Made by a program: the position numbers and the translations under genes
The notes under the pieces: generated by a model
Told to the model about the DNA's origin: nothing
What the model saw: only the letters and a program-made list of their open reading frames with translations
Databases searched by the model: none
Origin: Candidatus Methanoperedens sp.
GTDB taxonomy: Archaea > Halobacteriota > Methanosarcinia > Methanosarcinales > Methanoperedenaceae
Direction: 5' to 3'
NCBI GenBank assembly: GCA_041494705.1
Contig: JBGQBI010000006.1
Coordinates: 60,001-92,000, forward strand
Length of the DNA: 32,000 nucleotides
Shown here: piece by piece, positions 2,642-30,884 of the stretch
Layout: each line of letters begins with the position of its first letter
Numbering within the stretch: the first letter of the stretch is position 1

Positions 2642-2828
2642 TTTTATGCTTATTTCCTCAATTAATACTGTTTAATTAACAATTACAATAATTCCTTTAT
2701 TATGTTAATAATCTTGCTCATAGACTTTCTCTGCCATACCGACGCGGTGCGCAGTCGATAAAATTTTAAATGTGCGGGTGTATTGGAGTAAGTGGTGCAA
2801 GTATTTGGTAGATAAAGATGAGATTCAT

Positions 2829-5642
2829 ATGGTGGCGGAGGGAGGAGAGTTCTTTCTTTATAAAAGAGAAATTCAGAAATTAGGAGAAATAATATCAGAG
2901 ATTGAAAAGCAAAAATCATATCGTATCTTTGGATATCTTTTAATACCTATCATACTTGGTTTTTTTGTTTTAAAGAACATAAATGAGAACATATTCATCT
3001 TAACAAAGAGAAGGGATGAATTAACACATAAGGTTATAAGTGAGATTGAAACCTCAAACCAGCAACTTAAAAATAATTTAAAATATCTAAAGGATGCAGA
3101 TACTTTTCTTATATACTCTGTTAGAGCAGATTTGCTGGGTAAACTCGAAGATTACGGAAGTATTCTTCATTATCTGAAACTAAAAAATGAAAACTTTGAA
3201 AAATCTTTCAATGATCTCATAGAAACTTCAATAAACGAAGTGATGTCATATAAAATTACAATAGAGAACTTTAACAAAGAATTGATCGAAACCTCAAACC
3301 AGCAATTTAAGAATAATTTAAAACATCTAAAGGATGCAGATACTTTTCTTATATATTCTGTTAGAGCAGATTTGCTTGGTAAACTCGAAGATTTCAGAAA
3401 TATTCTTCATTATCTGAAATCAAAAAATGAAAATTTTGAAAAATCTTTCAATGATCTCATAGAAACTTCAATAAACGAAGTGATGTCATATAAAATTACA
3501 ATAGAGAACTTTAACAAAGAATTGATCGAAAGACGCAAGAAAGAGTACGAGTTTCTTTTTAATAAATCAACCGTTGGTTTAAATGATGAGCAGAAAACAG
3601 CAATTATAACAGACGATAAGCATAATCTGGTAGTGGCAGGTGCAGGCTCAGGTAAAACAGAAGTTCTAATAACCAGAATCGCCTACCTTGCGCTAAGAAA
3701 ACAAGAAACTATAGCACCTAATAGGATACTTGCCTTAGCCTTTCAAAATAAGGCTGCAAAAGAAATTGAAGAAAGGCTCAACAAGAGGTTTGGAATAGAA
3801 GTTAAAATTAAGACATTTCATTCTTTTGGGCTTGAAGTTCTTACCAATGCTTCCAATGCTTCATCGAATCCAAAATTAAAATTTAATGGAGATAACTTCG
3901 AGTCTGGATACAATGAATTCATAGCAGGGCTCTATAAAAAAGCAGAAAAGGAATCTTCGTTTCAAAACAAACTTTTCGCTTATATGCTGTATTTTGGAGA
4001 TGACGAACTAATTAAACAGGAATCCGATTTTGAAAAGAAAGATGAATGGTATCAGTACATGCGAAATTTAGCATATACTGCTTTGAATGGAACAAAAGTA
4101 AAAAGCGAAGGAGAAAGAACAATACTTAACTTTCTGTTTACTCATAAAATAAATGAAAAATACATCAAAGTGCTTTATGAACATCCCGCAGGCTGGATGA
4201 ACTATAAAAATGAAAAAGGCGAAATAAAAACACCAAAACCAGATTTCTTCTTACCTGAATATAACATCTATATCGAACACTGGGCACTGGATGAGATGGA
4301 TAATGTTCCAAAATGGTTTGATCAAGATTACAAAAAAGGAATGAGCACAAAGATTGAGAGATTCAAACAACAAAAAAGGTATTCTCTTATAGAAACAACT
4401 TATGGGGAATTTAAACGTAAGAATTTTATCGAATATTTTGAGAAAAAATTAATTACGGAAATTAGAAGAAAGCATCCCAAAAAGGACGTTATTTTATCTT
4501 CAATAGGCTATTCCGAATTAGTCGATAGGATTTGGAAAACATGTAAAGAATCGATAGAACGAATTCCTAAAGACATTTCAATTTTTATCGTAAAAGCAAA
4601 AACAAACGGCTTAACACCTCAAAATATACATGAGAGACTTGAAAAAGAAAAGTGGTCCCCGAAACAGAAAGCTTTTGCTGAGTTGGCACTGATAATTTAC
4701 AGGGAGTATGAAAAAGAGCTTCGTCTAACAAACGAAATAGATTTTTCTGATATGATTAATCAAGCTGTAGTGGAATTGGAGAAGAATAAATCATTATATT
4801 CATTCGATCACATATTGATAGATGAGTATCAAGATATAAGTACGCAAAGATATCGACTTATTAAAGCGTTGATGGCTAAGAATCATAATTGTAAACTGTT
4901 TTGTGTGGGGGATGATTGGCAAAGTATTATGGGCTTTACAGGTTCAAATTTAGAGTTCTTTTTAAAATTTCAAGACTATTTTGACCATCCAGCGAGAACT
5001 GACTTATCCATCAATTACAGAAGTAATAAATCTATTGTAGATGCTGGAGCAGAACTTATAAAATATAACGGCGCTGCCCAACTTAAGAAACAAACAATAG
5101 CAAACAACAATGAAGAAAAGAGAATCATCGTTTTTTCATCCTTACACAAAAATATATGGGACTATTATCAACAAACTGCTGTCCATTGTGCAAATATGGT
5201 TATAGAATATCTCAATAATGGATATGCGCCTCAGGACATAATGATTTTGTATAGAATCACAAAACCTCCTTTAATTAACCAGCTTATTGATCATGCAAAA
5301 TTCAATAATGTTCCTATAAAGATAAATGCCCGCAATCCTCAATCAATCCCATTAATGTCGGTTCATAAGAGTAAAGGTTTACAAGCAAAAGTCGTATTTC
5401 TCCTATGTGTTGACAAAGGTTTGTATGGTTTCCCAAGCGAAATTGAAAACCCTTTGATATTTGAGCCTGCTATGGATAAAAGATACAACAATAAAGAAGA
5501 AGAGGAGAGACGACTTTTTTATGTAGCAATTACCAGATCGAAAGAAGATGTCATAATATACACTCAAAAAGAAAACGAAAGTATGTTTTTGAAAGAAATT
5601 CAAAAATATACGGAAATTAAAAATATAACTAATAATTCATGA
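2829..5642 (+). CDS. UvrD/Rep-family SF1 helicase, helicase IV-like, with N-terminal TM helix and duplicated coiled-coil module
   Basis: SF1 motifs: Walker A AGAGSGKT (3636-3659), DEYQD (4821-4835), VGDDWQSI, INYRS, SVHKSKGLQAKVVFL, RLFYVAITRSKEDV. A hydrophobic helix YRIFGYLLIPIILGFFVL lies near the N-terminus. A PDFFLP...IYIEHW segment (4239-4283) sits between motifs Ia and II. The track ORF starts at GTG 2772. I prefer ATG 2829 because a TATA-like TTTTAAAT (2764-2771) overlaps the GTG. Confidence 0.8.
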   Translation: MVAEGGEFFLYKREIQKLGEIISEIEKQKSYRIFGYLLIPIILGFFVLKNINENIFILTKRRDELTHKVISEIETSNQQLKNNLKYLKDADTFLIYSVRADLLGKLEDYGSILHYLKLKNENFEKSFNDLIETSINEVMSYKITIENFNKELIETSNQQFKNNLKHLKDADTFLIYSVRADLLGKLEDFRNILHYLKSKNENFEKSFNDLIETSINEVMSYKITIENFNKELIERRKKEYEFLFNKSTVGLNDEQKTAIITDDKHNLVVAGAGSGKTEVLITRIAYLALRKQETIAPNRILALAFQNKAAKEIEERLNKRFGIEVKIKTFHSFGLEVLTNASNASSNPKLKFNGDNFESGYNEFIAGLYKKAEKESSFQNKLFAYMLYFGDDELIKQESDFEKKDEWYQYMRNLAYTALNGTKVKSEGERTILNFLFTHKINEKYIKVLYEHPAGWMNYKNEKGEIKTPKPDFFLPEYNIYIEHWALDEMDNVPKWFDQDYKKGMSTKIERFKQQKRYSLIETTYGEFKRKNFIEYFEKKLITEIRRKHPKKDVILSSIGYSELVDRIWKTCKESIERIPKDISIFIVKAKTNGLTPQNIHERLEKEKWSPKQKAFAELALIIYREYEKELRLTNEIDFSDMINQAVVELEKNKSLYSFDHILIDEYQDISTQRYRLIKALMAKNHNCKLFCVGDDWQSIMGFTGSNLEFFLKFQDYFDHPARTDLSINYRSNKSIVDAGAELIKYNGAAQLKKQTIANNNEEKRIIVFSSLHKNIWDYYQQTAVHCANMVIEYLNNGYAPQDIMILYRITKPPLINQLIDHAKFNNVPIKINARNPQSIPLMSVHKSKGLQAKVVFLLCVDKGLYGFPSEIENPLIFEPAMDKRYNNKEEEERRLFYVAITRSKEDVIIYTQKENESMFLKEIQKYTEIKNITNNS
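3048..3527 (+). repeat. 2 x 240-bp intragenic tandem direct repeat (80-aa module duplicated)
   Basis: Copy 1 is 3048-3287 and copy 2 is 3288-3527. By eye there are about 11 mismatches in 240 nt, and the last ~100 nt are identical. Each copy encodes ETSNQQ[LF]KNNLK[YH]LKDADTFLIYSVRADLLGKLED...ENFNKELI. Confidence 0.9.
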
Positions 5643-5694: not shown

Positions 5695-7806
5695 ATGACC
5701 ACAGAATGCACCGCCTGCAAAGGAACAGGCACTATCATCCTCAGCGAAAAGGAATGCCCCGACTGCAAGGGCTCAGGCAAGCCAAAAGCCATAAGCCTCG
5801 ATCAACTCTCTGAAAAAGACCTGGGAAAACTCATGGGAGGGGGCATAAAATGCGCAAAATGCCAGGGTACAGGTAGGATATCGGTCACCGAACCATGCAA
5901 GAATTGCGCCGGCAGGGGAAAGTTCTTCACATGCACCGTTTGCGGCAAGGAAACCACGAAAGGAGACCTCTGCGAGAGCTGCGCCAAAAAACCCCTTGTC
6001 CATGTCCTGAGCGCAGAATGCGACACGCGCGAGCTTGAGGTCGGGAAGGTTTACGAAGGAAAAGTGCAGGGGCATGCCAACTTCGGCGTGTTCGTTGACC
6101 TGAATCCACAGATTCGGGGGCTTATCCATTCAAGCAACATCAGTTTCCTCCCTGAAATCGGGGATAAGATATTCGTCGAAGTGAAAAACATAGCCCAGAA
6201 CGGCAACATCGAACTGCTCCCGAAGAGCCTGAAGGAATTCCAGCTAATCGAAGTCGAAAAACAGCTCCCGCGCCGAAAGACCACAGAACTCTCAAAATAT
6301 CTCGGCAAGCTCGTGCATCTCTCAGGCGAGGTAATACAGATAAAACAAACTGGCGGCCCCACGATATTCACAATCTCGGATGAGGATGGCACAGTGCAGT
6401 GCGCCGCTTTTGAGAAAGCAGGCGAGCGGGCATATCCTGAGATAAAGTCCGAGACCATCGTGAAGGTAATCGGTGAGCCCTCGATGAGGAACGGCGCCAT
6501 GCAGGTGGAGATACGCGCCATGAAGCAGCTATGGGGCGGGGATGCGACGGGCATCAAGGAGCAGATTGAATCAGCAATAGACAGGCGCGCAGAACCCCAC
6601 GATATCCAGTTCCTTGTAAAGAGCGAGGTACTGGAAAAGTTAAAACCAAGGATGCGAAACGCAGCCAAAATAATCAGGAAAGCGGTTTTCAAATCACGAC
6701 CTATAATCATAAGGCATCATGCGGACGCAGACGGGATTACCTCGGCAATAGCGATAGAACGTGCGCTCCTGCCGCTTCTTCGCGAAGTCGGAGGCTCTGA
6801 TGCAGACCGCCATTTCTACAGGCGCTCTCCTTCAAAGGCGCCATTCTACGAACTTGAGGACGTAACAAAAGACCTCACATTCGCGCTTGAAGACCAGGAG
6901 CGTTTCTCCCAGAAGATGCCGCTTGTGGTATTGATGGACAACGGCGCAACCGAGGAGGATATGCCTGCCATGAAACAGGCGATAATTTATGGCGTTGAAA
7001 TTTTGGTTATCGACCACCACCATCCCGACGGCACAATAGATTCCATGGTGCTCGAACACGTGAACCCTGCCTACGCTGGCGGGGATTTTGGCATAACTAC
7101 AGGGATGATAGGTACTGAGATAGCCCGAATGATAAATCCCGATATCGCAGAAGAGATTAAGCACCTCCCTGCCGTTTCAGCGGTCGGGGACAGGTCAGCC
7201 GCGCCTGAAGCAGAGCTTTATAAATCACTTGTAGCGGACAAATACAAACTCGAAGACCTCAAAAACATGGCGCTTGCAATTGATTACGAGGCTTTCTGGC
7301 AGAGGTTCAATGATGGACGGGGCATCATGAATGACATTCTCAATCTCGGTTCCAATATCCGGCATCAGCAGATAGTAAAATTATTGTGCGAGCAGGCAAA
7401 CGCCGCTATAACCGAGCAGCTTGAGGCGTCGATGCCAAATGTTAAAACCCAAAAACTGGCTAACGGCGCCATATTGAATGTAATAGATGTTGAAAATTTT
7501 GCCCACAAATTCACATTCCCCCCGCCTGGCAAAACAAGCGGTGAAATTCATGACCGCCTGTGCTCCCAGTACAGCGGGCAGCCCGTGGTCACCATCGGAT
7601 ACGGTCCTGATTTTGCAGTGCTGCGTTCAAAGGGCGTGAAGATGAACATCCCGCAGATTGTGAAAGAATTGCATAGCGAAATCAAAGGCGCTGGGGTGAG
7701 CGGTGGAGGTCATCTCGTGGTGGGCAGCATAAAGTTTGTGGAAGGCATGAGAAAAGAAGTGCTTGCAAAACTGGTTGAGAAAATAGGGGCGGCTGGGACT
7801 CAATGA
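5695..7806 (+). CDS. RecJ-like DHH/DHHA1 phosphoesterase with N-terminal DnaJ-type zinc-finger, S1 and OB-fold domains
   Basis: Four CxxCxGxG motifs (CTACKGTG, CPDCKGSG, CAKCQGTG, CKNCAGRG) plus CTVC...CESC. S1-like GKVYEGKVQGHANFGVFVDL. OB-like LSGEVIQIKQTGGPTIFTISDEDG. DHH motifs RHHADADGITS, LMDNG, VIDHHHP. DHHA1 motif GVSGGGH. Confidence 0.75.
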   Translation: MTTECTACKGTGTIILSEKECPDCKGSGKPKAISLDQLSEKDLGKLMGGGIKCAKCQGTGRISVTEPCKNCAGRGKFFTCTVCGKETTKGDLCESCAKKPLVHVLSAECDTRELEVGKVYEGKVQGHANFGVFVDLNPQIRGLIHSSNISFLPEIGDKIFVEVKNIAQNGNIELLPKSLKEFQLIEVEKQLPRRKTTELSKYLGKLVHLSGEVIQIKQTGGPTIFTISDEDGTVQCAAFEKAGERAYPEIKSETIVKVIGEPSMRNGAMQVEIRAMKQLWGGDATGIKEQIESAIDRRAEPHDIQFLVKSEVLEKLKPRMRNAAKIIRKAVFKSRPIIIRHHADADGITSAIAIERALLPLLREVGGSDADRHFYRRSPSKAPFYELEDVTKDLTFALEDQERFSQKMPLVVLMDNGATEEDMPAMKQAIIYGVEILVIDHHHPDGTIDSMVLEHVNPAYAGGDFGITTGMIGTEIARMINPDIAEEIKHLPAVSAVGDRSAAPEAELYKSLVADKYKLEDLKNMALAIDYEAFWQRFNDGRGIMNDILNLGSNIRHQQIVKLLCEQANAAITEQLEASMPNVKTQKLANGAILNVIDVENFAHKFTFPPPGKTSGEIHDRLCSQYSGQPVVTIGYGPDFAVLRSKGVKMNIPQIVKELHSEIKGAGVSGGGHLVVGSIKFVEGMRKEVLAKLVEKIGAAGTQ

Positions 7807-29203: not shown

Positions 29204-29408
29204 TTTATAGTACCCTCTTTATTATAACAAGTATTTAATTTAGCGTTAACAATACTTAGCATTATCGATTGCGTAAAATTTTCCAATATCTGGCACACAA
29301 GGATGACAAGATAAGCTTATGTAAGCATAAACAATTAACTACGTTCAAAGTTTGCTAGATAAAGAGGTAGAGAGATTTTGATGTTCGTTATGCTGCTGAG
29401 GCAATAGC

Positions 29409-30884
29409 ATGAGTAAGCTACAACCAATAGCCTTCATGAGTTATGCTCGATTTAACGATGAACATGACTATGGACGCCTTACCTTATTTCGCGAACGTCT
29501 GAGCGCCGAGATAGAGGTGCAGACGGGAGAAGAATTTCCGATATTCTATGACCGTAAAGATATTCTGTGGGGCCAGAATTGGAAGGAACGAATTGAGGAC
29601 TCTATTGATGAGGTCACTTTCCTAATCCCAATTCTTACTCCCAGTTTCTTTAAAAGCAGTCAATGCCGAGAGGAAGTTGAGCGTTTTATTGAACGTGAAA
29701 AGAAACTCGGACGCACTGACCTCATACTTCCAGTCTATTATGTCGGCTGCCCCATTCTCGACGATGAAGCACAACGTACGACTGATGAACTTGCTCAGGT
29801 AATTGCTGGCCGCCAGTATGCAGATTGGCGCGAGCTTAGATTTGAGCCCTTCACTTCTCCAGAAGTTGGCAAGACATTAGCAAAACTTGCAATTCAAATC
29901 CGTGATGCATTGGAGCGCACACGTCCACCTAAGAAACCGTCAAAGCCCTCTACAAGCAAGAGACGAGCGCACATGGGCATTCTGGCTACAGAATCCCTGC
30001 CAGTTACGCAAGAGATTGCATTAGGCGGAGAGGAGACCGGGATTGCAAGCCGTCCATCCGCAAAAACTCAACCTGCAATACTTGTTGTGGACCCCATGCA
30101 CCGCGGCGACTATCCAACCATTAACGAAGCTATCAAAGCAGCAAAACCGGGAACCAGAATTCTTGTCAAGCCGGGTTTATATGAGGAAGGGCTTGTCATC
30201 GACAAACCACTTGAGATCATAGGCGAAGGCGCCCCCGGTGAAGTTGTAGTACAGGCTCTCGGAAAGGACGCACTACTTTTTAAGACAACTATGGGGCGGG
30301 TGGTTAATCTGAACATGCAACAGTTGGGCGGTGGTGATTGGTATTGTATAGACATCGCTCAGGGGCGGCTGGAAGTGGAAGGATGCGACATCACAAGCCA
30401 GAGTCTTGCCTGTGTCGCTATTCATGGCGGTGCCGACCCACGCCTGCGCCGCAACCACATACACGAAGGCAAGCAAGGTGGCGTCTTCGTTTATGAAAAT
30501 GGCCAGGGGACGCTGGAGGACAATGACATTTTCGGCAATGCAACCGCTGGGGTGTCGATAATGAGGGGTGGAAATCCTACGCTGCGCCGCAACCGCATAC
30601 ACGAAGGCAAGCAAGGTGGCGTCTTCGTTTACGAAAATGGGCAGGGAACGCTGGAAGACAACGATATTTTTGGCAATGCATACACTGGGGTTGAAATCAA
30701 AACAGGCGGAAATACTATGCTGCGCCGCAACCGCATCAACAAGAACAGCCACGAAGCTGTACTGGTCTACGATGGAGGCGGCGGCACAATTGAGGACAAC
30801 GACCTTCGCGACAATGCTAAAGGTGCATGGAACGTATCAGTCGATAGCGAGCCAAAACTCAAACGCGCACGAAACATAGAATGA
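29409..30884 (+). CDS. TIR-domain protein fused to right-handed parallel beta-helix (PbH1/CASH-type) repeats
   Basis: N-terminal ~140 aa: IAFMSYARFND...FPIFYDRKDILWGQNW...FLIPILTPSFFKSSQCREEVERF (TIR-like beta-A, BB-loop region and SxxCxxE). Then a Pro/Lys-rich linker (RTRPPKKPSKPSTSKRR). Then reiterated ~23-aa units such as NRIHEGKQGGVFVYENGQGTLEDNDIFGNA. Confidence 0.8.
   Translation: MSKLQPIAFMSYARFNDEHDYGRLTLFRERLSAEIEVQTGEEFPIFYDRKDILWGQNWKERIEDSIDEVTFLIPILTPSFFKSSQCREEVERFIEREKKLGRTDLILPVYYVGCPILDDEAQRTTDELAQVIAGRQYADWRELRFEPFTSPEVGKTLAKLAIQIRDALERTRPPKKPSKPSTSKRRAHMGILATESLPVTQEIALGGEETGIASRPSAKTQPAILVVDPMHRGDYPTINEAIKAAKPGTRILVKPGLYEEGLVIDKPLEIIGEGAPGEVVVQALGKDALLFKTTMGRVVNLNMQQLGGGDWYCIDIAQGRLEVEGCDITSQSLACVAIHGGADPRLRRNHIHEGKQGGVFVYENGQGTLEDNDIFGNATAGVSIMRGGNPTLRRNRIHEGKQGGVFVYENGQGTLEDNDIFGNAYTGVEIKTGGNTMLRRNRINKNSHEAVLVYDGGGGTIEDNDLRDNAKGAWNVSVDSEPKLKRARNIE
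30444..30760 (+). repeat. 138-bp (46-aa) intragenic tandem repeat, about 2.3 copies, in the beta-helix domain
   Basis: CTGCGCCGCAACC starts at 30444, 30582 and 30720. The first ~102 nt of copies 1 and 2 differ at 8 positions, 7 of them synonymous. Confidence 0.85.

Follow-up and report, generated by a model that had tools for sequence, protein, structure and literature searches.

The 32,000-nucleotide stretch of Candidatus Methanoperedens sp. DNA analysed here (the window) carries an open reading frame (ORF) for a 491-amino-acid (aa) protein in which an N-terminal TIR domain is joined by a linker to a C-terminal beta-helix. The identical protein is on record in five contigs and occurs in assembly GCA_041480985.1, and the positions of its parts are collected in Table 1. 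On one side, the gene for an AMP phosphorylase (deoA-like) is divergent from it across a spacer of 205 bp, and on the other side the gene for ABCE1 is convergent with it across a spacer of 46 bp. Because of this arrangement the TIR–beta-helix gene is monocistronic and is not co-transcribed with its neighbours, as a first-pass annotation, made from the sequence of the window, had claimed and as the ORF coordinates bear out. No signal peptide or transmembrane segment was found in the protein (maximum KD(19) = 0.86), which is therefore predicted to be cytoplasmic. The GC content of the gene (0.47–0.53) is not distinctive when compared with that of its flanks (0.40–0.51), and composition was thus rejected as a sign of recent transfer.

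The first-pass annotation described a TIR-like domain of about 140 aa at the N-terminus, and this assignment is upheld by profile searches, by an AlphaFold2 (AF2) model and by Foldseek. Two Pfam models match above their cut-offs, namely TIR_2 (PF13676; E = 2.7e-12, 47.7 bits, cut-off 28) and TIR (PF01582; E = 1.8e-6, 28.3 bits, cut-off 21.3), and the motifs quoted in the annotation (IAFMSYAR, FYDRKDILWGQNW and FFKSSQCREEVERF) are all present in the protein. The AF2 model of the whole protein, computed with 40 homologs in the input, has a mean pLDDT (predicted local distance difference test score) of 83.6, and the model of the TIR domain alone has a pLDDT of 86.5 and a predicted template modelling score (pTM) of 0.83. 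When the PDB was searched with the latter model using Foldseek, 48 matches were obtained at E ≤ 1e-3, and each of the 50 top matches listed is a TIR domain or a TIR-containing protein; the domain is thus predicted to adopt the flavodoxin-like alpha/beta fold of TIRs. The matches include TLR1, TLR2, TLR10, SARM1, AbTir (7uxu, TMt 0.72), the SPARTA TIR-APAZ protein, L6, RPS4 and RPP1, of which all except the three TLRs are active NADases.

In its sequence, too, the domain resembles an enzyme. E89 aligns with the Glu of 'TEYEL' in AbTir and of 'WCLMEL' in L6, C86 falls on the plant Cys (L6), and both residues are invariant in 119 of 120 homologs, so the placing of the catalytic Glu at this codon by the first-pass annotation holds. 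Residues F43, F46, D48, G55 and W58, which form a block around the BB loop, are invariant to the same extent (119 of 120). BB loops are flexible and mediate TIR–TIR assembly in known TIR enzymes; in the model, residues 53–56 have a pLDDT below 50. Across 50 homologs, 18 columns of the TIR are invariant, and the 491-aa protein keeps every one of them; a family-specific helical extension at the C-terminal end of the TIR carries the invariant residues W140, R141 and R144. Y47 is the one unusual residue, since 115 of the 120 homologs have Gln there; this change is not considered disabling because active AbTir likewise has Tyr there. Judged by its conserved residues and predicted fold, the domain is probably catalytically competent and is a putative NADase.

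Table 1. Features of the TIR–beta-helix gene and its upstream spacer, in window coordinates (TRF, Tandem Repeats Finder; HMM, hidden Markov model)
Feature	Position	Strand	Basis or remark
AT-rich spacer of 205 bp between the AMP-phosphorylase (deoA-like) and TIR–beta-helix genes	29204..29408	.	GC ~0.40; both promoters presumed there
TIR–linker–beta-helix gene	29409..30884	+	491 aa, ATG to TGA (stop 30882-30884)
TIR domain, aa 1-170	29409..29918	+	Pfam TIR_2 and TIR; TIR-only AF2 model; Foldseek
BB-loop region, aa 48-58 (D48 ... W54 G55 .. W58)	29550..29582	+	Strongly conserved in family
Codon GAA for E89, putative catalytic Glu	29673..29675	+	S83-x-x-C86-x-x-E89 motif
Disordered Pro/Ser/Lys/Thr-rich linker, aa 171-222	29919..30074	+	pLDDT 30-40
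Beta-helix N-terminal cap and first non-canonical turns, aa 223-345	30075..30443	+	pLDDT > 93
Canonical 46-aa double-turn unit 1, aa 346-391	30444..30581	+	TRF; unit HMM
Canonical 46-aa double-turn unit 2, aa 392-437	30582..30719	+	TRF; unit HMM
Degenerate last unit and C-terminal cap, aa 438-491	30720..30881	+	pLDDT 95-98

The TIR is followed by the low-complexity linker noted in the first-pass annotation, which could not be aligned across the family, and then by the beta-helix. The Pfam model Beta_helix (PF13229) matches at E = 3.1e-40 (137.8 bits, cut-off 25.9), so that TIR_2, TIR and Beta_helix all pass their cut-offs in the profile HMM check of the domain assignments, and Pfam NosD matches at 2e-15. 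AF2 predicts a right-handed beta-helix for aa 223–491 with a pLDDT above 93. Its N-terminal cap carries the motif Y-P-TINEAI-x-AA-x-PG-x-x-I-x-V-x-PG-x-Y-x-E and gives weak Pfam matches to DUF1565 and Pectinesterase, and its C-terminal cap is conserved across the family (NRINKN...GGGGTIEDNDLR.N..GAW.IS.DS.P.VKRARN.E). Between the caps, Tandem Repeats Finder detects a DNA repeat with a period of 138 nt at 30444–30736 (2.1 copies, 85% matches). This period equals a 46-aa double turn, or two PbH1 turns of about 23 aa, and together with the Beta_helix match it substantiates the reiterated PbH1/CASH turns that had been described. Shadow ORFs of 81–159 aa overlap the repeats (30273–30752 and 30110–30355 on the minus strand, 30568–30879 on the plus strand), and their equivalents recur in 51–74 of 80 homolog loci; these were rejected as genes, being a side effect of codons that repeat with the units.

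The number of canonical units varies from 2 to 8 among 120 homologs, with about 45 aa of added length per unit. The 491-aa protein, with two, has the fewest among them, and the ortholog from a related Methanoperedens metagenome-assembled genome (MAG; L002), which lacks unit 1, has one. When sequence entropy was calculated over 556 units, most positions proved near-invariant, including ladders of Arg/His/Lys and of Glu/Asp. Entropy exceeds 2.5 bits at only eight positions, 11, 12, 15 and 17 and, one turn later, 34, 38, 40 and 41. In the model these residues point outwards from the third strand of each turn, which is the longest, and from its entry loop, and the variable positions are predicted to form one continuous face of the beta-helix resembling that of a leucine-rich repeat (LRR) protein. 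In the one canonical unit that the window and L002 proteins share, five of the eight differences lie at variable-face positions (11, 15, 35, 38 and 41), and the remainder lie at positions 8, 9 and 46, outside the variable-face set. For units compared within each gene, the ratio of non-synonymous to synonymous substitution (omega) at the variable face is 0.93 between adjacent units and 1.21 between recently homogenised units, values that are circular in that the sites were picked for their variability and that support diversifying or relaxed selection while leaving positive selection unproven; for the scaffold, omega is 0.18 and 0.33, respectively.

The beta-helix had been likened to the FBXO11/NosD repeat type, and our comparisons favour the FBXO11 half of this description. 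Over stretches of about 160 aa, and in every 46-aa register, the beta-helix is 41–44% identical to P0151, an F-box and zf-UBR protein of the FBXO11 type with which it also has the N-terminal cap motif in common. Such F-box and zf-UBR proteins are among the top matches of the beta-helix (E = 1e-132 to 1e-100). The specific NosD model (TIGR04247) scores 50.5 bits, far below its cut-off of 300, and neither an export signal in the protein nor nos genes nearby were found. The CASH domains of FBXO11 have been described as its substrate-recognition part (PMC8825234). The suggestion that the beta-helix is of a carbohydrate- or virion-binding type did not hold up, given that the protein has no signal peptide or transmembrane segment and that its closest characterised relative is the substrate-recognition domain of the cytoplasmic or nuclear FBXO11. 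Likewise, a tailspike or carbohydrate-enzyme identity was rejected in favour of the FBXO11 type, as the fold matches to such proteins in PDB and BFVD are generic (9–18% identity); PHROGs yields only weak matches to tailspike and unknown families. Pfam detects neither an F-box nor a zf-UBR domain in the 491-aa protein at E ≤ 1, and the JGI label 'F-box protein 11' was judged an over-annotation, the protein not being an FBXO11 ortholog.

The beta-helix is not confined to proteins with this TIR. When aa 221–491 alone were searched against 1.84 billion representatives clustered at 50% identity, 13,993 proteins matched at E ≤ 1e-3 and 1,324 at E ≤ 1e-30, and the point at which the match begins ranges from residue 1 to beyond residue 3,000. 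About 30–37 of the best 150 matches carry the TIR subtype of the 491-aa protein. Others carry different heads on the same module: a Ser/Thr kinase (Pkinase; a cluster of 30), a caspase (Peptidase_C14; 13), a different TIR_2/ThsB-like TIR or a SEFIR domain (9), an Hsp70/MreB-like ATPase (4), the F-box-like and zf-UBR head of eukaryotic FBXO11 (4), a CHAT protease (P0158, in a cluster of 2) and, as singletons, a TPR head and a kinase with WD40. The best-scoring match of all (P0121) has a SIR2_2 head, one sibling TIR head (P0160) gives a weak ThsB_TIR match, and several clusters have no Pfam head. The TIR, SIR2, caspase, CHAT and SEFIR domains form the standard effector set of prokaryotic immunity and suicide systems, and SIR2 is a second NADase. 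Because such effector heads are interchangeable on one module, the beta-helix would be the sensing part and the TIR the executing part, and this interchangeability is the strongest indirect argument for that division of labour.

The TIR head also exchanges its tail. On a provirus-like contig (L140:8001-9626, IMGVR_UViG_2770939490_000001), a TIR of the same subtype, 48% identical over aa 1–172 with the 'DWRELRF' helix included, is followed by a Pro-rich linker and a vWA-like domain whose 'DNSGSM' motif is of the MIDAS type, and no beta-helix is present; an adjacent ORF resembles a DNA methyltransferase.

The architecture was called an orphan in the first-pass annotation, and in this respect the description has to be withdrawn. 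A search of 5.8 billion proteins returned 1,879 matches, the best 120 of which are all full-length TIR_2 and Beta_helix proteins with 50–70% identity over 96–100% of the query. Judged by such matches, there are hundreds of full-length homologs with a patchy distribution across Archaea and Bacteria. A scan with two peptide patterns of one genome for each of 185,579 species detected relatives in 140 of them, a count that is a lower bound. Archaeal hosts are Methanoperedens, Methanothrix, Methanogaster and Hadesarchaea, and bacterial hosts include Acidobacteriota (many of them Pyrinomonadaceae), Dehalococcoidia/SAR202, Streptomyces, Alphaproteobacteria, Bradyrhizobium, Pseudomonas botevensis, cable bacteria, Cyanobacteria and Verrucomicrobia.

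For the TIR domain, a neighbour-joining tree drawn without bootstrap is incongruent with organismal phylogeny and mixes archaea with bacteria. The two Methanoperedens sequences nest with Dehalococcoidia and Acidobacteria, the Methanothrix copies are spread over several clades, and the Streptomyces sequences, several to a genome as paralogs, group in one coherent clade. Because the gene tree departs from the organismal one, we read this pattern as repeated transfer between domains of life followed by retention within lineages. Tandem full-length paralogs occur in one Methanothrix MAG (L053:6359-8461 and L053:9353-11434), and Streptomyces sp. NPDC002889 has three copies on different contigs (L039, L043 and L050).

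Comparison with L002, in which the same locus has flanking proteins that are 90–98% identical, allowed selection on the gene to be estimated. The ratio of non-synonymous (dN) to synonymous (dS) rates is 0.17 for the whole gene, 0.10 for the TIR, 0.18 for the beta-helix and 0.66 for the linker, the last value corresponding to near-neutral evolution. Both folded domains are thus under purifying selection and, since their dN/dS is only 0.10–0.18, the gene is judged functional and the idea of a decaying pseudogene, which the small number of units might raise, was rejected. Whole-gene dN is 0.077, compared with 0.010–0.019 for DHH, MCH, deoA, ABCE1 and argB (other neighbours reach 0.045), so that the gene has a dN 4–7 times that of the adjacent core genes. 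With its sparse and patchy carriage, mixed tree, paralogs and faster dN at a low dN/dS, it behaves as an accessory gene.

The locus itself is plastic, with genes gained and lost despite the 90–98% identity of the flanks. In L002, a 634-aa CooS/hybrid-cluster-like gene (L002:4992-6896) is inserted between MCH and deoA, and a gene for a secreted 312-aa protein with a CxxCH haem motif and Ig-like repeats (L002:8742-9680) lies between deoA and the TIR gene. The deoA–ABCE1 junction, whose comparison in related genomes the first-pass annotation had proposed, was examined in 58 deoA-anchored metagenome loci (L082–L139). Relatives whose AMP phosphorylase is 84–91% identical have none of the other genes of the window (MCH, ABCE1, argB and so on) within 7 kb, and gene order around deoA is poorly conserved even within that group. 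The comparison places the junction in a narrow clade only, L002 alone sharing it among the loci compared, and the junction is thus unsuited to an order-wide test of presence or absence. In five Methanothrix-type loci (L023, L055, L059, L064 and L077; Methanothrix/Methanotrichaceae), argB is convergent with the family gene at a distance of 35–80 bp, and the Methanoperedens argB (L001:13655-14539) lies two genes beyond the TIR gene, with ABCE1 and EMC6 between them. The Methanothrix and Methanoperedens copies that lie next to or near argB are not each other's closest relatives on the TIR tree, and their position could reflect either an old residence with fast divergence or a hotspot of replacement.

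No partner gene could be found for the protein. The window contains no SIR2/ThsA (SIR2/SLOG/Macro), Argonaute, CD-NTase, STING or SAVED gene, in agreement with the first-pass annotation, and the same absence extends to the family. All-against-all clustering of 6,415 ORFs from 80 homolog loci revealed no conserved neighbour, the commonest real one being a generic ABC ATPase present at variable distance in 11 of the 80, and the larger ORF clusters being shadow ORFs inside the TIR–beta-helix gene; a conserved partner gene was accordingly rejected. Strong matches to defence models do occur for a few of the immediate neighbours examined (loci L002–L063), including two bSEFIR (2e-60), PDC-S21 (2e-121), a CBASS-type TIR effector (2.9e-92) and three members each of mad3 and mad8, and by these matches a minority of family members may reside in defence-rich regions.

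About 20 kb from the TIR gene, the window encodes a 956-aa UvrD-type helicase (2772–5642, plus strand) with an N-terminal extension of about 270 aa that has no Pfam match, and an adjoining gene (5695–7806, plus strand) encodes a protein with OB-fold, S1 and DHH (RecJ/GAN-like) domains. Strong PADLOC matches of the GajB type derive from one ORF of the window, most likely this helicase, and the helicase-type PADLOC matches of the window correspond to helicases of the UvrD and Hel308 types. The helicase and DHH protein genes are probably housekeeping repair genes.

From these observations we propose that the 491-aa protein is a self-contained, partner-independent sensor-effector, a proposition that we hold to be evenly balanced between right and wrong. 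The FBXO11-type beta-helix would serve as the recognition module, one of its three faces presenting the variable, solvent-exposed residues, and the TIR would be an NAD+-cleaving effector held as an inactive monomer on the flexible linker. A ligand that is multivalent or repetitive would bind along the variable face and bring TIR domains together. This ligand would most likely be a protein, either one from an invading virus or mobile element or one of the host that infection or stress has changed. The resulting TIR–TIR assembly would complete the active site around E89, and hydrolysis of NAD+ would then lead to growth arrest or death through abortive infection or programmed cell death. Assembly-dependent activation is known for the TIRs of SARM1, AbTir, SPARTA, TIR-STING and plant TNLs. 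The NADase activity of the protein, its activation by oligomerisation, the nature of its ligand and its role in immunity or cell death are all matters that we infer. The idea of a self-contained sensor-effector was put forward in the first-pass annotation, and it has gained support from the SIR2, caspase, CHAT, SEFIR and kinase heads found on related beta-helices and from the variable surface stripe.

Several observations, in addition to the circularity of the variable-face omega values, weigh against an immune role. Both in the window and in L002 the gene is surrounded by housekeeping genes, as it is at three annotated homolog loci, where the neighbours in Streptomyces and two other bacteria are RNase III, Fpg, SMC, RecR and DnaX. 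Among 150 immediate neighbours at 38 loci, no PADLOC family is represented more than three times (mad3 and mad8, with bSEFIR twice), counts that, with no matched background to set them against, amount to a weak negative. Neither 72,556 plasmids nor 50,697 phage genomes contain a full-length copy, and the phage genomes gave no match of any length. The stable position near argB in some archaea looks more like long residence than rapid turnover, and an identity of 50–70% between archaeal and bacterial proteins is unusually high for a sensor engaged in an arms race. No PADLOC defence model matched as such, PADLOC giving only a partial TIR match. Guilt by association with defence genes is thus not apparent for the gene, and its immune function is one that we infer.

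The partial match just mentioned is to PDC-S66 (3.2e-9); it covers residues 41–111 and profile positions 174–242, or 69 of 282, and a full-length match to this model was not obtained. NCBIfam FxsC_Nterm is matched at 1.7e-11 with 44 bits, far under its 130-bit cut-off, and ThcB4, of type III Thoeris, at E = 0.0014 with 17.5 bits (cut-off 220); ThsB_TIR (PF08937) is absent from the Pfam matches at E ≤ 1. Membership of a known defence model was rejected on these grounds, together with the weakness of the PHROGs matches, and the first-pass view that the architecture is unlike described defence families stands, as no PADLOC, NCBIfam or PHROG model covers both TIR and beta-helix. Carriage by phages or plasmids was rejected as well, TIR-only matches being the most that was seen. 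An Agrobacterium plasmid (NZ_CP116698.1, 33356–33847) has such a match at 46% identity, and 2.9 million viral contigs gave a single match, again to the TIR only, which is the TIR–vWA gene described above.

Several of these same points would suit a regulator outside immunity, an explanation that is conceivable but that we consider unlikely. The beta-helix of such a regulator would bind an endogenous protein or polymer, and its TIR would tune NAD+ or NAD-capped RNA, or trigger dormancy, when the cell is under physiological stress, a function that would belong to the ordinary biology of organisms whose lifestyle is complex or filamentous. It is favoured by the housekeeping neighbourhood found wherever one was examined, by the position near argB kept in both Methanothrix and Methanoperedens, by the strong purifying selection on both folded domains together with very high identity across domains of life, and by the lack of full-length copies in the plasmids and phages searched. 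Many hosts, moreover, are filamentous or multicellular (Streptomyces, cable bacteria and Methanothrix), the eukaryotic relative FBXO11 is a regulatory protein (PMC8825234), and TIR proteins can decap NAD-RNA (PMC10937652). However, a sparse, patchy distribution and a tree like those produced by horizontal gene transfer are hard to square with a core physiological role, and relatives with an 84–91% identical deoA do not have the gene near deoA. The caspase, CHAT, SIR2 and SEFIR heads of sibling proteins are also typical of suicide or immune effectors, and there is variation in copy number, in unit number and in the surface stripe.

In a further arrangement, which we regard as improbable, the protein would be a ThsB-type sensor whose TIR makes a cyclic ADP-ribose (cADPR)-type signal for an effector whose gene lies elsewhere in the genome. 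In known signalling systems, the sensor and the effector share an operon. Here, no ThsA-like gene (SIR2/SLOG or Macro) was found in the window or in a 21-kb extended locus, none of the 80 loci reveals a conserved neighbour, and the 491-aa protein has no ThsB_TIR match at the threshold given above. The TIR is, in addition, interchangeable on the beta-helix with SIR2, caspase and CHAT heads, which act directly. The Thoeris-like arrangement draws on the weak ThsB_TIR match of P0160, on the weak ThcB4 match of the 491-aa protein itself and on the finding that bacterial TIR sensors commonly generate cADPR isomers (PMC10022894).

Finally, the beta-helix might be an enzyme that modifies carbohydrates or polymers (a CASH-type lyase, epimerase or esterase) and the TIR a non-catalytic device for oligomerisation or scaffolding, a role for which there is precedent in the many animal TIRs that act as adaptors. 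Although alginate C5-epimerases, pectin methylesterases and pectate lyases match the beta-helix best in structure and profile, and although its invariant faces carry conserved His, Asp, Lys and Glu ladders, we think this very improbable, because those matches are generic ones at 9–18% identity for a cytoplasmic protein with no signal peptide, its specific relative FBXO11 uses the CASH domains to recognise substrates that are proteins (PMC8825234), the charged residues repeat at every turn like structural ladders and not as one active site, and the invariant catalytic Glu and surrounding TIR motif are not required of an adaptor.

If the self-contained sensor-effector mechanism is true, TIR-based immunity would gain a sensor of a new fold, a right-handed beta-helix that bears an LRR-like variable stripe and lacks an NTPase switch. 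The system would be a compact one of a single gene (446–760 aa), and its close homologs in culturable Streptomyces, Pseudomonas and Bradyrhizobium make it directly testable. Archaeal TIR proteins have rarely been studied, and this would be among the few archaeal TIR effectors of defined architecture. The swappable heads on one conserved module also point to a class that is not modelled in current defence catalogues. We tentatively suggest, with somewhat more doubt than belief, that the FBXO11-type beta-helix is an unrecognised, NTPase-independent pattern-recognition module, that it defines a large class of prokaryotic proteins which act in death or immunity as single chains and whose heads are TIR, SIR2, caspase, CHAT, SEFIR or kinase domains, that the Methanoperedens protein is an archaeal TIR member of this class, and that eukaryotic FBXO11 received its substrate receptor from this prokaryotic conflict module. 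Only four FBXO11-type representatives occur among the best 150 beta-helix matches, and because the prokaryotic diversity of the module far exceeds these four, the matches suggest a transfer from prokaryotes to eukaryotes. The beta-helix may also be a further example of a regulatory module of eukaryotes with its origin in conflict systems of prokaryotes, and the identity of 41–44% would make the prokaryotic proteins a model for target binding by a medically relevant beta-helix.

Among described proteins, FBXO11 is the closest in its repeat domain. This eukaryotic SCF substrate receptor has three CASH beta-helix domains, and the homology extends over the whole beta-helix, including the 46-aa unit (…NPTLRRNRIH-GKQ-GV-VY-NG-G-LE-N-I--N…) and the cap motif. 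In contrast, the 491-aa protein is prokaryotic, has a TIR head in place of the F-box and zf-UBR domains, and has far fewer units. Thoeris ThsB is similar in being a TIR protein thought to sense infection directly, and Thoeris-type TIR models show weak similarity, whereas here there is no ThsA in the window or homolog loci, no ThsB_TIR match, and a large C-terminal repeat domain instead. PDC-S66 and the N-terminal TIR-like domain of FxsC resemble the protein locally, in the TIR, and neither has a beta-helix.

High internal repeat conservation is a feature of the WD40, ANK, TPR and LRR sensors of fungal and bacterial NLRs. The 491-aa protein is like them in its near-identical DNA units (85% here), in the changing number of units within its family and in the restriction of variability to a few periodic surface positions, but its repeats form a beta-helix and it has no central NTPase switch. 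Pfam detects no NTPase family in it at E ≤ 1, the STAND type (NACHT/NB-ARC/AP-ATPase) included, and the region between TIR and beta-helix is a disordered linker of about 50 aa. No description of a TIR fused to an FBXO11-type beta-helix, or of its siblings, was found in the openly searchable full-text literature, including Aravind-lab papers on conflict systems. The nearest functional parallels are the single-chain TIR effectors (TIR-STING, TIR-SAVED, SPARTA TIR-APAZ and the TIR-NLRs of plants and bacteria), which likewise combine an N-terminal TIR bearing a catalytic Glu with a ligand-sensing module, and the TIR here is structurally like those of SPARTA, SARM1 and plant TNLs. The logic to be expected would also be the same, with ligand-induced oligomerisation leading to NAD+ cleavage. 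However, those effectors sense through a receptor for cyclic nucleotides, through an Argonaute partner or through a STAND NTPase with LRR, TPR or WD40 repeats, whereas here the sensor would be a right-handed beta-helix working with no NTPase, upstream cyclase or Ago. We therefore rate the fusion of a TIR effector to a sensor as known, and the beta-helix as an NTPase-free sensor fold as new.

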